Below the pieces are notes generated by a model that had not been told where the DNA came from, ran no database searches, and saw only the letters and a list, made by a program, of their open reading frames with translations. A stretch of DNA of 64,000 bases from Patescibacteria group bacterium (lineage in GTDB: Bacteria; Patescibacteriota; Patescibacteriia; XYB2-FULL-38-15): positions 299,302 through 363,301 of the forward strand of contig JBAZJZ010000001.1 of the NCBI GenBank assembly GCA_041650995.1, in the 5' to 3' direction. This document shows, piece after piece, positions 53,140 through 57,628 of the stretch; within the stretch, counting starts at the first letter, position 1; each line of letters begins with the position of its first letter. Made by a program: the position numbers and the translations under genes.

Positions 53140-53595
53140 CTAAATTTTAATATCCACCTTATCTCCTATTTTTATCCCGTGCTCCGCGGCAAACCCGGCG
53201 TTGACTTCTAAAACATAATTAGCTGGTTCTCTCGGTGTGTAGGTTGATAAAAATTCCGCGGCCGTAACCGGAAGATTTGGCGCGATATCAACAACTACAT
53301 TATTTTTAATCCAAATAATATCAATGGAAAAATTCATATCTTTCATCCAAAATGCCGGCTGACCGGGGGTAGCAAAAATAAAAAGCATTCCATGATTTTT
53401 ATCCAAACTTTTACGGTTGCTTAAACCTTTTGCCATTTCCATCGGCTCATCAGCGATTTCCACTTTAACTTTTACATCATCAATAATTACTGAGCCGTGT
53501 TCTTCGACGTATTGGCCTACTTTTAAAAATCCCGCCGCCGCCAAAATTACGATAAAAATGACCGAATAAAAACGTTCCATAACATTCAATGTCAT
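53140..53595 (-). CDS. DUF192 domain protein
   Basis: MAKGLSNRKSL...GMLFIF...FWMKDMNFSIDIIW pattern. Confidence 0.65.
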   Translation of the reverse strand: MTLNVMERFYSVIFIVILAAAGFLKVGQYVEEHGSVIIDDVKVKVEIADEPMEMAKGLSNRKSLDKNHGMLFIFATPGQPAFWMKDMNFSIDIIWIKNNVVVDIAPNLPVTAAEFLSTYTPREPANYVLEVNAGFAAEHGIKIGDKVDIKI

Positions 53596-53667
53596 TACGA
53601 GCTTAGCGAAGCAATCTCATTTATGGGATTGCCGCGTCGCTCATTTTATTCGCTCCTCGCAATGACA
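53590..53667. mobile_element. MITE-like palindromic element with TGTCATT termini (78 bp)
   Basis: tgtcattacgagc...gctcctcgcaatgaca. Confidence 0.5.
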
Positions 53668-53724
53668 AAATAATTCTTTTAATTATTGTACCAAAATATC
53701 ATAAAATCGCAAGCTAAATAAAAA

Positions 53725-53811
53725 CCCTGGAGTGAGTGAGCAATCCTCGAATATCCAGACAAACAGAGAGAGATTTGTTTGCTGAACGAGGCTTACTCAC
53801 TCGCTTCAGGG
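53725..53811. repeat. 87-bp imperfect palindrome (ccctggagtgagtgag...ctcactcgcttcaggg with inner caaaca...tgtttg)
   Basis: Read directly; lies at the left boundary of the GC-rich segment. Confidence 0.6.
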
Positions 53812-54017
53812 TTCAAACATTTTTTGAGGCCACCACCCGACTGAAATTCATGTTAACTAATTTGAGCGGGTGACATTCTCGAAAAATGCGGGGAGTTACT
53901 AAGCATAAACTTTTCACTCCCCCGAGGCTCTGCTTCCTCTGGGCTCACCACTGCGCAGGTGACGCGTTCGGGCGCGGCTGGCGAACGTTGACCTTGCGGT
54001 CAAGCGATGGCAGCTAT

Positions 54018-54191
54018 CTATCTCACGCCTACCTCCTTCTTTTCGCCGAGCAGGAACCGGACGAACTGGTCCAGCTGCGGCTCGTACCGCTGCATGAGCC
54101 GGGCCGTCGCCTGCGGTGTGATCCGGTCGGCGATTCTGACCACAAGTACTGTGGAGACGAGAATCGCCGTGCTAGCGATCTCCCATGCCAT
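54018..54191 (-). CDS. GC-rich small membrane protein (57 aa from MAWEIAS...)
   Basis: RBS agggag; start chosen at the internal Met of the track ORF. Confidence 0.4.
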   Translation of the reverse strand: MAWEIASTAILVSTVLVVRIADRITPQATARLMQRYEPQLDQFVRFLLGEKKEVGVR

Positions 54192-54211
54192 CTTCACAAT
54201 TTTTCTCCCTT

Positions 54212-54493
54212 CTAGCCGATCTTCCGAGGATTTGTTGCGACGAACACCAAGTACGCCGCGACGAGCAGAACGACGTTCAGGAGGACGGCACCGAGATTGG
54301 CGGCCGGTCTCCACCAGGCGTTCGGCAACGCCAGATAGAACTCTCTGTAGATCGTCGCCCCTCCCGCGAGGACAGCCACGATCGTGAACACGAAGGCTCC
54401 ACCTGGAGAACCTTGCGCCCAGCGGAGGATGATCATCGCCCCGAAGGCAACGATCATCACCCAGAACGCGATCGTTCCGATTGCTTCGAGCAT
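54212..54493 (-). CDS. GC-rich small membrane protein (93 aa)
   Basis: ORF track; three TM helices. Confidence 0.45.
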   Translation of the reverse strand: MLEAIGTIAFWVMIVAFGAMIILRWAQGSPGGAFVFTIVAVLAGGATIYREFYLALPNAWWRPAANLGAVLLNVVLLVAAYLVFVATNPRKIG

Positions 54494-54505
54494 CTTCTTC
54501 TCTTT

Positions 54506-54640
54506 CTACCCGCCGAGGACCAGCAAGGTCCCGACGAAAGCGAAAAAGACAATGAACAGAAAAACATTGCCCTCGGCTCCGTCTTCTGCCCCACCGACAA
54601 CCATGAGCCGCCGGCGTTCCAGTTTTTGCACTCCTTTCAT
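54506..54640 (-). CDS. GC-rich small membrane protein (~45 aa, MKGVQKLERRR...)
   Basis: The upstream part of the track ORF is translation of the leader repeat; the start is trimmed to the first Met downstream of the repeat. Confidence 0.35.
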   Translation of the reverse strand: MKGVQKLERRRLMVVGGAEDGAEGNVFLFIVFFAFVGTLLVLGG

Positions 54641-54898
54641 GAGAATGTACAGGTACGCTCCTACCACCAAAACTCCCAATGCCAACCTGAACAATCTCTT
54701 TTCCTCCTTCTTTGAAAGCACCACTTCTCGTGATGCCCTCGAAAAAGGGCGGAACTCATTTTTTAGGTGGGTTCCGCTAACTCGCTTAAGTTGCTCGTCG
54801 CGCATTACTGCGTGATTTCGCAAAACTTTAGCGAGCGCTCAACCTAGGATGGTTGAACTTTCCTGGCATACTTTGGAAGCCAGGACGTTGGGAAGGAA
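54641..54898 (-). repeat. leader repeat unit 1 (homologous to 55286-55586 and 56067-56333)
   Basis: Shared blocks gatgccctcgaaa.agggcggaactcatt..ggtgggttccgct...gcaagccgctcaacctaggatggttgaactttcctggcatactttgg. Confidence 0.8.
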
Positions 54899-55285
54899 CT
54901 ACGAGCAGCCCTCGTCGACCGTGCCGTCGCAGTCGTCATCGACCCTATTGCAGTCCTCTTCGGTCGAGACGAATTGCGACTTGCAGGCAGTCCACTCACG
55001 GTTCAGGCAGGTGCTCATGCCGATTGCGCAAATGCCACGCGCGCCATCCACCGAACAAGTCTGTACCGAACCCTCCGGCACCTCCTCTAGACGGCCGTCC
55101 TCGTAGACGAGGCACCCTCCTTCTACCGCCTCCGTACCCGCCGGCTCGTCGATGATAGGCTGGCTCGTACCGCCGAAATCGAAAGTGTAGTACTGCGAGA
55201 GCCAAGCCGCGAGACCGATGCCGACGAGAATCAATCCCACGACGATCGCCGCGACCTCCGCTCTCTTCGACCTCTGCGTCATCAT
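54899..55285 (-). CDS. GC-rich secreted Cys-rich protein with C-terminal DDDCDGTVDEGC metal-binding-like motif (128 aa)
   Basis: Signal anchor; 10 Cys; RBS aggaaggaagggg. Confidence 0.5.
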   Translation of the reverse strand: MMTQRSKRAEVAAIVVGLILVGIGLAAWLSQYYTFDFGGTSQPIIDEPAGTEAVEGGCLVYEDGRLEEVPEGSVQTCSVDGARGICAIGMSTCLNREWTACKSQFVSTEEDCNRVDDDCDGTVDEGCS

Positions 55286-55586
55286 ATCTCTCCCTCCCCT
55301 TCCTTCCTTGTTTGTTGCCCAATGAAGGGCAGTGTAAAGAACTTTGTCCCGGACACGCGAGATATTCGCGGCCGAGAAACTTTCCTCTCTTCGAGCTCAC
55401 CACTTGCATGATGCCCTCGAAAGAAGGCGGAACTCATTTTTGAGGTGGGTTCCGCTGGAGCTCGCTTGGTTGCTTGTCGCACACTTGCGTGTGAGATTTT
55501 ACAAACCTTTGCAAGCCGCTCAACCTAGGATGGTTGAACTTTCCTGGCATACTTTGGTTTGAATTTGCCAGGACGTTTGGAAGGAG
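55286..55586 (-). repeat. leader repeat unit 2
   Basis: See unit 1. Confidence 0.8.
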
Positions 55587-56066
55587 CTACGAACTGCAGC
55601 CAAGCATCTGCGGCGTCAGCAACAGATTGCCTTCGCCGCCGATCCACGGATGGCGAATCACTGCCGGTTCCACCGAGAGACCGTCAACGGTAACCATGAG
55701 ACGGTCGAGCATGCCCAGATCGCCGTACCAGCGTCCGTCGGTACGTCGAGCATTGACCTCGACGCCTCCCGCGCGACCGCAGGCCTGCGCCTTGGTCAGC
55801 CGCACCTCGAACATGGCCGGCCCGTAGGACACATCTCCGTTCGAGGCATCACCGGGATCGACTGCGTGAAAGATGTAAATCTCGGCCGACTGCTCATCCT
55901 TGGAGTTAATCCGAACCGTCACGGAGTCCCGCTGCTTGTCCGCGCGCTTGTCTGCCAGCAGAGCCAGAAGACCCAAGCTCAACATGCCGAACATGAAAAA
56001 GCAAACCGCACCCACAAGCCACCAATTGCGCCACCAGTTGCTGAGAGCCTTCAGTGCCTTCTTCAT
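55587..56066 (-). CDS. GC-rich membrane-anchored protein (~160 aa from MKKALKALSNWW...)
   Basis: RBS aaggagaag; the longer track ORF (to 56162) runs into the repeat. Confidence 0.45.
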   Translation of the reverse strand: MKKALKALSNWWRNWWLVGAVCFFMFGMLSLGLLALLADKRADKQRDSVTVRINSKDEQSAEIYIFHAVDPGDASNGDVSYGPAMFEVRLTKAQACGRAGGVEVNARRTDGRWYGDLGMLDRLMVTVDGLSVEPAVIRHPWIGGEGNLLLTPQMLGCSS

Positions 56067-56333
56067 CTTCTTCTCCTTTTTCCTTCCTTGTTGTAAAGAA
56101 CTTTGTCCCGGACACGCGATGATTCGCGCGCCGAGAAAACTTCCTCTCTTCGAAAGTACCACTTTCGTGATGCCCTCGAAAAAGGGCGGAACTCATTGTG
56201 GTGGGTTCCGCTAAACTTGCTTGGTTGCTTGTCGCACATTACTGTATGATTTTGCAAAACCTTGCAAGCCGCTCAACCTAGGATGGTTGAACTTTCCTGG
56301 CATACTTTGGAAGCCAGGACGTTGGGAAGGAAG
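56067..56333 (-). repeat. leader repeat unit 3
   Basis: See unit 1. Confidence 0.8.
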
Positions 56334-56693
56334 CTATGGCACACATTCGCAGATGCCGTAGTCACAGTAGCCAAACTTCTCTCTGCAAGAATTCCGGCAC
56401 TCTTCATCCCTGCAGAATCTCTCATCGTTCAGGTCGCACCGTTCGCCGATGCCATCATTGTCCGCATCGAACTGGTCGGGGTTAGGATCAATAGGACAGT
56501 TGTCCCAACGATCTGGAATCTTGTCGCCATCCTGATCCTTTATCATGACCGGCTGAACAACCACGCCCCGCCAGTGGAGAGAAGCCGCTCGGGAAACTTC
56601 CAGGCAAAAACCGCGCAACGCGCAGAAAAACGTGAAAACGACGAACGTGAACGACGCTACCGTGATTACTGTCCTTGCCACTTTTCCATTCAT
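56334..56693 (-). CDS. GC-rich secreted protein with thrombospondin-type-3-like Asp-rich Ca-binding repeats and Cys-rich C-terminus (119 aa)
   Basis: DKIPDRWDNCPIDPNPDQFDADNDGIGERCDLNDE; signal peptide. Confidence 0.5.
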   Translation of the reverse strand: MNGKVARTVITVASFTFVVFTFFCALRGFCLEVSRAASLHWRGVVVQPVMIKDQDGDKIPDRWDNCPIDPNPDQFDADNDGIGERCDLNDERFCRDEECRNSCREKFGYCDYGICECVP

Positions 56694-56786
56694 TATGTTT
56701 TTACTTCCTTATTTCATCCGCCAAAGGCGGACTGGTCAATGAACTATTCCCTTGTCGCACCATGCGGTTTAGGAAATCTCTTCAGT

Positions 56787-56867
56787 GGCGCTGGTGGGAA
56801 TTGAACCCACTCTGACCCGGTCGACCCTTGCGGGCTCTCTCCTTGAGACTTTTTGACCGGCAGCGCC
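56787..56867 (-). other. tRNA-like element (T-arm gtgggttcaattcccac plus 7-bp acceptor-like stem ggcgctg/cagcgcc) lacking a normal D/anticodon arm
   Basis: Minus-sense ggcgctgccggtcaaaaagtctcaaggagagagcccgcaagggtcgaccgggtcagagtgggttcaattcccaccagcgcc-a; a second long-range stem ccggtc/gaccgg replaces the D/anticodon region. Confidence 0.3.
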
Positions 56868-56955
56868 CCTCGAGCAGAAACTCGTGCTTCTGCCCTGGCT
56901 TGAATCGATGAATACTCATCGCCTCAAGTCATTTAGACAAACAAAAACGGGCGAG

Positions 56956-57104
56956 GAGAGAATCCGCCCGAAATTAAATTATTTGTACAAATAATTTAGG
57001 GTGGTTTCCCGCCAAATCGGCGGGTCTCTCTCAAACCAACTTATCTTATTGTCAACAAATTAGTATACCATAAAAACAACAATCTGTCAAGAGTTTTTGA
57101 CAGA
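56956..57104 (-). ncRNA. candidate ~110-nt small RNA: near-consensus promoter (TTGACA-17-TATACT, 57076-57104) to an intrinsic terminator (cgggcggattctctcctcgcccg plus T5, 56956-56984)
   Basis: Hexamers and spacing read directly. The -35 box lies in a 7-bp perfect inverted repeat ctgtcaa-gagttt-ttgacag (57098-57117). Internal hairpin cccgccgatttggcggg. Confidence 0.4.
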
Positions 57105-57142
57105 TTTATACATTCCACTCTATTTTTCCTTTTAAATTAACC

Positions 57143-57628
57143 AAATTTACCCCTCCCCTTAAGAATTGACTACTCTTCCCCTCCTCCCTGAGGAGGGGTT
57201 GGGGGTGGTGCGTAATTTTTGCAAAATTATTGCCAAAGCATTATCTAAACTATCTCTCACATCGTTGTCTGTAAAACGCACAACTCTTATGCCAGCCCTT
57301 TCAATAAATTCTTGTTTTACGCGGTCGTGTTCCGCAGCTCCAATTTGATAATGACTATCACCATCAATTTCCACCGCGAGTTTAGCTTCCGGACAATAGA
57401 AATCGACAACATACGGCCCTATTCCTTGCTGCCGGCGAAATTTGTAGCCGCCCAGATTATTCCCACATAAATAATGCCAAATTATTTTTTCAGAACACGT
57501 GGGACGGTTGCGAAGATTTCGACGCGTTAACTTTTGTGATTTGCGGTTAAATAGTTTGATCATAACCACCCCTTGATCCCCTCCTTGGAAAGGAGGGGAA
57601 ACTACAACCTTAAGAGGGGGAAATTTAC
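57143..57628. mobile_element. small element with imperfect terminal inverted repeats plus subterminal cccctcc...ggagggg hairpins at both ends, carrying a DUF559 nuclease gene
   Basis: Left aaatttacccctccccttaag and right cttaagagggggaaattt; hairpins at 57177-57198 and 57578-57599. Confidence 0.5.
57159..57569 (-). CDS. DUF559 (Vsr/PD-(D/E)xK-like) endonuclease domain protein
   Basis: RRQQGIGPYVVDFYCPEAKLAVEIDGDSH...RVVRFTDNDV pattern. Confidence 0.7.
   Translation of the reverse strand: MVMIKLFNRKSQKLTRRNLRNRPTCSEKIIWHYLCGNNLGGYKFRRQQGIGPYVVDFYCPEAKLAVEIDGDSHYQIGAAEHDRVKQEFIERAGIRVVRFTDNDVRDSLDNALAIILQKLRTTPNPSSGRRGRVVNS

Follow-up and report, generated by a model that had tools for sequence, protein, structure and literature searches.

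What kind of element fills the gaps between the genes of a bacterial operon, when those gaps are long, resemble one another and each harbor what appears to be a transcription terminator? This question is raised by a stretch of 64,000 nucleotides from a Patescibacteria group bacterium (contig JBAZJZ010000001.1; the whole of this stretch is termed the 'window' below), in which three related spacers, here called units, separate genes of a minus-strand operon that are lettered A to F. A sequence-only reading of the window had described each unit as a 5' leader, containing an intrinsic terminator that would control the following gene through transcription attenuation. The analysis reported here confirms the hairpin on which that description was built, and changes its setting: the hairpin is real and has been conserved, as one helix among several in a larger domain that fills each gap between variable 'cargo' genes. 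All coordinates are positions in the window, and the features of the operon and its units lie on the minus strand.

Three copies of one structured spacer

The pattern GCGGAAC-N{9,20}-GTTCCGCC has exactly three matches in the window, all on the minus strand (54748-54777, 55426-55455 and 56185-56211), while dinucleotide shuffles give an expectation of 0.00 matches. The hairpin, which is the fourth in the series of helices described below and is therefore termed H4, is followed in every case by a U-rich tail: CCUUUUUCGAG in units 1 and 3 and CUUCUUUCGAG in unit 2, that is, C(C)UUUUU or CUUCUUU. The positions originally given for the copies in units 1 and 2 fell on the right sites but were a few nucleotides off, the true hairpin and tail occupying 54738-54777 and 55416-55455. 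Similarly, a distance of about 110 nucleotides between hairpin and start codon holds for unit 3 (113 nucleotides from the last U), but not for unit 2 (135 nucleotides) or for unit 1 (48 nucleotides, without helix H6). The loop between GCGGAAC and GTTCCGCC comprises 12 to 15 nucleotides in the units of the window, and the stem comprises seven base pairs (five of them GC), a 1x1 internal loop and two further base pairs. Taken alone the hairpin is worth -10 to -12 kcal/mol (up to -20 kcal/mol in the most stable relative, unit b of locus L008), and its predicted probability is approximately 1.0 when the RNA made up to the U-run is folded.

Each hairpin is embedded in a spacer that can be aligned with the other two at a mean column identity of 77%, beginning at the TAG stop codon of the preceding gene; a search of the window with a profile of the unit (nhmmer) recovers these three units only. 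All are far more stably folded than shuffled sequences (unit 3, -111.1 kcal/mol, z = -8.39; unit 2, -122.6 kcal/mol, z = -6.89; unit 1, -88.5 kcal/mol, z = -7.34), and nearly all of their nucleotides are paired. A common series is found in the three folds, consisting of a pyrimidine tract just after the stop codon, helices H1, H2, H3, H4 and H5, and then a purine-rich Shine-Dalgarno (SD) sequence; an additional helix, H6, distinguishes the 'long form' of units 2 and 3. Alignment and shared fold bear out the proposal that the three units are copies of one structured cis-acting RNA, and the two further hairpins noticed in the sequence-only reading reappear as H1 (CCUGGC/GCCAGG) and H2 (UUCAACC/GGUUGAG).

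Unit 3 (56067-56333), a long form lying between genes A and B and delimited by alignment and fold, illustrates the arrangement. Its post-stop pyrimidine tract, CUUCCUUCC (56325-56333), is predicted to pair either with the SD sequence of gene B (pairing P1) or, before H4 has closed, with the GGAA of the H4 5' arm. Three helices then follow: H1 (UCCUGGC...GCCAGGA, 56295-56319), in which compensatory changes are seen at four pairs across units; H2 (GUUCAACC...GGUUGAGC, 56271-56292), which takes the form CGUCCGAG...UCGGACG or CCGGUC...GACUGG in relatives; and H3 (56214-56270), a long bulged hairpin with the GNRA tip GUAA (GUAA or GCAA among the window units and their relatives). The paired TTGCAA boxes that had been noted upstream of the terminator-like hairpin are indeed present, but they are the two opposite strands of H3, and in homologues they are swapped for other, mutually complementary sequences. 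H4 itself (GCGGAAC-N12-GUUCCGC, 56186-56211), identified both by the pattern scan and by folding, is succeeded by the tail CCUUUUUCGAG (56175-56185), the U-run of which forms the 5' strand of H5 (CCUUUUUCGAGGGCAUCAC-GAAA-GUGGUACUUUCGAAGAGAGG, 56143-56185, -20 kcal/mol). H6 (56106-56137), a feature of long units only, and the purine-rich SD region of gene B, AAGGAAGGAAAAAGGAGAAGAAG (56067-56089), complete the unit.

Unit 2 (55286-55586), also of the long form, lies between genes B and C and contains H1 (55542-55573), H2 (55518-55539), H3 (55459-55517) and H4 (55427-55455), followed in its 3' part by the tail CUUCUUUCGAG (55416-55426), H5 (55384-55427), H6 (55347-55378), a further helix H7 (55316-55331) and the SD sequence (55288-55309). 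Unit 1 (54695-54898), between genes C and D, is of the short form, with H1 at 54861-54885, H2 at 54837-54858, H3 at 54780-54836, H4 at 54749-54777, the tail at 54738-54748 and H5 at 54706-54748; here the 3' strand of H5 overlaps the SD sequence of gene D (54696-54710). H5 is built in the same way throughout, the U-run pairing as 5' strand with a purine tract (GAAGAGAGG or AAAGAAGG) as 3' strand beneath a tip of GAAA, GCAA or GAGAA, and it abuts H4 at a distance of 0-3 nucleotides. H4 itself is placed 125-150 nucleotides past the stop codon, behind three other conserved helices.

Covariation and distribution

Relatives of the units were recovered by pattern scans of genome and metagenome contigs and through homologues of genes D and F. 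The same islet is present in about ten related Patescibacteria/Falkowbacteria-like genomes, which belong to very small groundwater bacteria of the Candidate Phyla Radiation (CPR), for example in JACRNW010000002, FWPV01016111, OZ246416.1, JBAZEY010000006 and several short contigs, always at the same chromosomal site, flanked on one side by a gene for an MraY-like glycosyltransferase, after which a nuclease gene of the DUF559 or GIY-YIG kind usually comes, and on the other by a DUF192 gene. From this material 19 unit cores were assembled: 14 units that come from the window and seven related loci (eight sources in all) and five cores from loci L012-L017.

When the 14 units were folded independently, each adopted the same helix order, H1-H2-H3-H4-U-run/H5(-H6); across the relatives the units measure 170-320 nucleotides and hold five to seven separate helices. 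In the alignment of 19 cores, compensatory changes are found at 22 of 43 pairs (four in H1, four in H2 and 11 or more in H3), and the covariation score of 0.38, which falls to 0.10 or less when the partners are slid against each other, was reached by none of 500 shuffles; structure is thus conserved beyond primary sequence. Covariation was also analysed in a 13-sequence version of the alignment. H5, which was aligned separately with its long tip insertions collapsed, adds seven compensatory pairs that include positions of the U-run itself (U-A replaced by C-G in four of the 19, and C-G at the base replaced by U-A or A-U), and its base is retained even where insertions of 20-120 nucleotides extend the tip. 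G.U pairs outnumber A.C cells 84:31 and 52:27, an excess that is partly biased (the structure having been derived on the sense strand) and that fits folding of the sense mRNA.

The distribution of the family is narrow. Rfam 15 gave no match on any unit, either at the gathering threshold over the whole window or at E<=5 over 53400-57400; the units are absent from phage and plasmid collections (blastn) and from viral contigs (two pattern scans); and the genome and metagenome scans produced, apart from the syntenic loci, only chance matches in coding regions or in a eukaryote-like repeat (L002, L003 and L005). A profile of the cargo N-terminus matched just two proteins. The structured RNA family is real, non-random, previously undescribed (in that no Rfam family matches it) and restricted in its distribution.

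The attenuation question

The description of the hairpin as a terminator within a 5' leader is not supported by this analysis. The units are intercistronic, each starting at the TAG of the preceding gene, and a promoter scan of all three yielded one 9/12 site, in unit 2 only and not conserved; they are not promoter-proximal leaders. The TTGCAA boxes were rejected as an internal promoter, since as strands of H3 they give way to other complementary sequences. Three further candidates were also set aside: a leader peptide (the AUG in the H4 loop is not conserved, the corresponding sequence being AAUGUG, ACAAG or CAAAG elsewhere), antisense open reading frames (MNFPGILW..., by-products of the repeat that are at odds with the compensatory changes) and a T-box (the resemblance to GUGGUAC falls downstream of the terminator-like hairpin, and Rfam gives no match). 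A double-stranded DNA operator centered on H4 was similarly rejected, because the half-sites are spaced 9-19 nucleotides apart, as expected of a hairpin and not of a dimer site.

Attenuation itself demands an alternative to the terminator, and no conserved antiterminator was found in the unit folds. The sole alternative partner of the H4 5' arm is a UUCC:GGAA pairing of 4-5 base pairs: in most units, as long as the 3' arm is still untranscribed, folding predicts a duplex between the GGAAC of the 5' arm and the (G)UUCC after the stop codon. To keep H4 from forming costs 5.6-14.5 kcal/mol, the exception being L9_u, the sole unit without a predicted H4, where the cost is 0. With no conserved antiterminator, and with a U-run that scores as a weak tail, transcription attenuation of the classical kind is not supported at the units.

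Another part of the locus agrees better with the notion of a terminator located in a 5' leader. Upstream of the whole operon lies a 5' leader of approximately 124 nucleotides (56938-57061), present in six genomes, which by prediction is of the classical terminator/antiterminator kind. It contains a canonical terminator (tail score -5.4) together with a competing antiterminator pairing, in which GAGAGAG-ACCCGCC can pair either with the neighboring GGCGGG or with the GGCGG-AUUCUCUC of the terminator CGGGCGG...CGCCCG-UUUUUGUUUG; RNAalifold, applied to the six genomes, picks the antiterminator pairing. No Rfam family matches this leader, which is a candidate riboswitch or attenuator on the basis of these predicted folds. 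At L012 (5040-5125) and L006 (40-110), the operon leader passes straight into UUCUUUCGAG-H5-H6-SD, without H1-H4; the leader terminator is missing from L006, where the contig starts inside the leader.

A proposed 'punctuation' module between cistrons

The reading tentatively favored here, which we consider a real possibility and hold with some reserve, is that each unit is a 'punctuation' module placed between cistrons, in which a leaky terminator or pause is joined with a hairpin that protects the 3' end and with gating of the ribosome-binding site (RBS). According to this model, H1-H4 would give the upstream cistron a structured 3' end, and H4 with its short U-run would act as a weak, leaky intrinsic terminator or pause as well as a protective 3' hairpin, so that transcript abundance would step down cistron by cistron. 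In RNA that reads through, the U-run would be taken up into H5 by the purine-rich, SD-like tract (the real SD sequence in short units), while the post-stop CCUUCC would pair with the SD sequence of the next gene, and the resulting fold would gate translation of the next cistron, with the gate probably being opened by the ribosome that terminates upstream. Termination or pausing of RNA polymerase at the U-run, translational gating and graded expression are all functions that we infer from sequence.

The tail of H4 scores as a weak terminator tail. Its TransTermHP-style score ranges from -2.2 to -3.3 across the units (-2.60 in unit 3), roughly half the canonical value, the reference being the score of -5.4 obtained for the two canonical terminators of the locus (that of the leader and the native terminator at the end of the operon). 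Such weakness fits a leaky signal, as any operon-internal site must be. The arrangement also persists: a stable hairpin stands directly 5' of the U-run in all contexts, even where the hairpin sequence is unrelated, and also after the last gene, which is what would be predicted of a terminator or pause that requires 'any hairpin plus U-run'. In L009, H4 is replaced by GAGGA/UCCUC; in L012, a canonical leader terminator with its own U-run occupies the H4 position and is followed by H5; and in the terminal modules found after gene F, the place of H4 is taken by GGGGAGU/ACUCCCC (the window and L006) or GGGGAG/CUCCCC (L001). In the window, this terminal module (53818-53922) consists of the H4-like GGGGAGU...ACUCCCC (53890-53922), then GCAUUUUUCGAG, and then an H5-like helix (53818-53888), with no gene after it; equivalents are present in L001 and L006. 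It carries the same UUUUUCGAG as the units, and the base of its H5 is changed in a compensatory manner (CAUUUUU...AAAAAUG).

Several observations weigh against the punctuation model. As a terminator, H4 is followed by a spacer of 1-3 nucleotides, then by UUUUU, UUUUC or UUCUUU (3-5 consecutive U) and then by CGAG, and a consensus terminator scan does not list the H4 sites. The U-run is kept paired and is not kept pure, in that a change of U to C is matched by a change of A to G in its partner, so that its conservation is fully accounted for by pairing within H5. The H4 stem is the same in 18 of 19 units, with arms that are 92-95% identical, as against 55-68% for H1-H3; this identity exceeds the need of a generic terminator hairpin, and hints at sequence-specific recognition or at frequent recombination there. 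H1-H3 (about 130 nucleotides, covarying, with GNRA tips and conserved internal-loop bases) would be superfluous for a simple terminator or stabiliser. As to gating, the closing helix between the post-stop CCUUCC and the next SD sequence is predicted to reach 7-8 base pairs in long units and is no better than in composition-matched shuffles; it is a helix that we infer from modelled folds. Finally, H5 is retained in terminal modules that lack a downstream gene, and its purine tract in long units is not a functional SD sequence, both of which imply that masking of the RBS is not the only role of H5.

Two additional features of these sequences may be recorded. The UUCC motif is conserved in the H1 loop as well. 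Furthermore, the H4 loop, which reads CCCACCAC or CCCAUCAC in 15 of 19 units, resembles the H5 5' strand CAUCAC and is complementary to GUGGUG in the H5 3' strand (56193-56203 with 56155-56160 in unit 3, and likewise in units 1 and 2), a complementarity that could, in a model of the fold, correspond to a pseudoknot or an alternative pairing.

Alternative readings

Many of the same observations would be accommodated if H4 were no terminator at all, and were instead a helix of a compact spacer that acts post-transcriptionally, as a site of RNase processing and of stabilisation, as a translational gate, or both. The polycistronic RNA would then be cut into protected monocistronic pieces, with H4 as a 3' cap and H5 as a 5' cap, and the semblance of hairpin plus U-run would be a by-product of the H5 pyrimidine strand pairing with its purine tract. 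The weak tail, the covariation of the U-run with its H5 partner and the close abutment of H4 and H5 all agree with this, as does the tolerance of insertions in the H5 tip above a conserved base, which is typical of structural RNA, and near-complete pairing would shield so long an untranslated stretch against both RNases and Rho. What it leaves unexplained is why a hairpin is always found 5' of the U-run, even if its sequence is unrelated or it is a leader terminator; moreover, neither a cleavage site nor an RNase motif could be identified, and no ribozyme in Rfam matches. On balance this explanation appears rather unlikely, short of being improbable.

A second alternative retains the terminator and places it under the control of a sensor: H1-H3, closed by the post-stop UUCC:GGAA pairing, would constitute an aptamer-like or protein-binding domain, and a ligand, a protein or a ribosome on the adjacent stop codon would stabilise the closing helix and block H4, leading to regulated read-through into the next cargo gene. 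In favor of such a mechanism, the domain is complex and covarying, has GNRA tips and keeps bases of its internal loops and junctions, and a terminator-like hairpin adjoins its 3' side, an arrangement known from the expression platforms of riboswitches; the arms of H4 are the most conserved sequence of the unit, as expected of a strand with two alternative partners, and in most units GGAAC is predicted to pair with the (G)UUCC after the stop codon while the 3' arm has yet to be made. However, that pairing of just 4-5 base pairs would have to close a multiloop of approximately 130 nucleotides while H4 is favored by 5.6-14.5 kcal/mol, the terminator tail is poor and no Rfam aptamer matches. The loops and stems of H1-H3 also vary greatly among unit types, as a ligand pocket does not usually do; up to three copies occur in series in one operon, and one module follows the last gene, where no gene remains to be regulated; and a classical attenuator leader already stands upstream of the operon. 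We regard a sensor-controlled attenuator as unlikely.

The last alternative moves the function to DNA, with the units serving as recombination substrates (homologous, or specific for hairpins as in attC sites) that shuffle cargo genes, the structure mattering in single-stranded DNA and the invariant H4 forming a crossover core. In its favor, the number of cargo genes (0-3 per genome) and their identity vary between close relatives at a fixed site; units within a genome are homogenised (units a and b of L015 are 99% identical) and are mosaics of helix variants, with breakpoints near H4 (L013 has a recombinant H1); and a single upstream promoter followed by promoterless reading frames, each with a structured repeat, recalls an integron array. 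It is nevertheless highly improbable: in the 14-kb syntenic loci L012, L013 and L015, no called gene has a Pfam domain of a recombinase or integrase, the units are two to four times the length of attC and multi-branched where attC is one bulged hairpin, the G.U excess favors folding of the sense strand, unlike attC with its bottom-strand fold, no units turn up in phage, plasmid or viral collections, and ordinary homologous recombination between 170-nucleotide repeats of 85-99% identity suffices for the mosaicism, with no dedicated function needed.

A broader proposal is put forward here with considerable doubt: that the units represent a new, CPR-specific class of large structured RNA, either a domain, repeated at each cistron, that senses a small molecule, a protein or the ribosome and switches H4/H5, or an RNA/single-stranded DNA element that both punctuates expression and mobilises the flanking surface-protein cassettes.

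The operon and its surroundings

The minus strand of the region reads as a single operon, driven from a strong sigma-70-type promoter (TTGACA-17-TATACT, 57062-57090). In the transcribed sense, its order is gene A, unit 3, gene B, unit 2, gene C, unit 1, genes D-E-F, the terminal module and a terminator. The small proteins encoded by genes A-C have a hydrophobic segment at the N-terminus, together with domains rich in Cys and Asp: gene A (56334-56693) encodes a Cys-rich protein of 119 amino acids with an N-terminal transmembrane or signal segment and a thrombospondin type-3 repeat; gene B (55587-56066, with its ATG at 56066) a protein of 159 amino acids with an N-terminal transmembrane segment and no family match; and gene C (54899-55285) a protein of 128 amino acids with an N-terminal transmembrane segment and a weak MopE-like Cys/Asp motif. 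Genes D (54506-54694, with a TTG start), E (54212-54493) and F (54018-54197) each encode a small membrane protein and are packed tightly, without any unit between them (54018-54694). When genes A-F were compared with Pfam, NCBIfam, PHROGs and PADLOC, the thrombospondin type-3 repeat and the weak MopE-like motif were the only matches. Across the genomes that bear the islet, genes D and F are conserved and gene E diverges, and many cargo proteins are lipoproteins with the common N-terminus ...GC(D/N)NTF(I/V)DL.

The operon ends in a native canonical terminator (53716-53811), a perfect-stem hairpin of approximately 90 nucleotides followed by UUUUUAUUU, which precedes the DUF192 gene and is found in all related genomes; it is also the source of a spurious MIR529 match in Rfam. 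The region from approximately 53.8 to 56.9 kb forms a GC-rich islet, with 52-61% GC as compared to approximately 38-46%, or near 42%, for the genome. Directly upstream of the promoter, at 57140-57200 and in the counterparts of this region in L001 and L004, are short palindromic repeats of the CCCCTCCCCTTAAGG type, and a nuclease gene is likewise found directly upstream of the promoter (DUF559 in the window, GIY-YIG in L004); repeats and nuclease genes beside the promoter suggest an insertion hot spot.

One further element lies in the 5' untranslated region of gene A, where 82 nucleotides (56786-56867) resemble a tRNA, in that the acceptor and T-arm ends, and only these, of the tmRNA and mascRNA models match. 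The scores of 24-26 bits (24.4 for tmRNA) are below the gathering score, and ARAGORN does not call the element. It is present in L004 with two compensatory changes in the acceptor stem, and absent in L001, L012, L013 and L015. Either an insertion or a signal for processing by RNase P could account for it.

Significance and comparison with known systems

CPR bacteria have tiny genomes with few recognizable regulators, and to our knowledge almost no regulatory RNAs have been described in them. The fold described above comprises 200-310 nucleotides and six to seven helices, is backed by covariation and matches no Rfam family, and it recurs from gap to gap within a hypervariable operon. The products of this operon are lipoproteins and secreted, Cys-rich, adhesin-like proteins, of a type that an episymbiont would employ to contact its host. 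Were the module to set graded or conditional expression of these cassettes, it would represent a new solution to operon-internal control; were it also to drive cassette turnover, it would amount to an integron-like system without an integrase. Either way, it offers a concrete small RNA target for structure probing and in vitro transcription.

Leaky, operon-internal intrinsic terminators share with the units a GC-rich hairpin of -10 to -12 kcal/mol and a U-rich stretch, placed after each cargo cistron and after the last gene, and in both the hairpin sequence can be exchanged while the arrangement of hairpin and U-run stays. An intrinsic terminator has a U-tract of about 7-8 nucleotides directly after its stem; the units have a spacer and a short U-run, a near-invariant stem and a U-run that lies inside a covarying downstream helix. 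Riboswitches and leader attenuators (including those of the trp type) likewise place a covarying domain 5' of a terminator-like hairpin, the 5' arm of which has, in the units, a possible partner by the stop codon. Unlike them, the units are intercistronic, promoterless and present in up to three copies per operon, and have no stable conserved antiterminator, leader peptide or Rfam aptamer.

With integron attC sites and the repeats of Vibrio cholerae, the units have in common an array of promoterless reading frames in the same orientation behind one promoter, each with a structured repeat after it that is conserved more in fold than in sequence, along with variable array content and homogenisation within a genome. 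An attC site is a single imperfect bulged hairpin of 57-141 nucleotides with R''/L''-L'/R' boxes; the units are multi-branched, measure 170-320 nucleotides, have no integrase among the genes called in the syntenic loci and show a G.U bias toward the sense strand. The sequence GTTCAAC...GTTGAGC in H2 does fit the RYYYAAC/GTTRRRY of attC, but its two halves are just 8 nucleotides apart, and the pair is absent from type-B units, with unrelated sequence in half of the units.

Elements that act on translation provide further parallels. As in RNA thermometers of the fourU type, a U-run (together with CC) pairs with a purine-rich SD sequence in short units, and as in long-range masking of an RBS (MS2 coat/replicase, secM-secA), the SD sequence of the following gene has its complement in a pyrimidine tract by the preceding stop codon. 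In contrast to both, the H5 tract of long units is not a functional SD sequence and the masking helix is kept where no gene follows; the pairing between post-stop tract and SD sequence is, in addition, indistinguishable from an effect of composition. Finally, although the units are far larger and more complex than the processing and stabilising hairpins found between cistrons (the RNase III sites of early phage T7 transcripts, the puf operon and REP elements) and have no recognizable cleavage site, they resemble them as repeated, similar elements between the cistrons of one transcript, and could, in the same manner, leave protective hairpins on both products.

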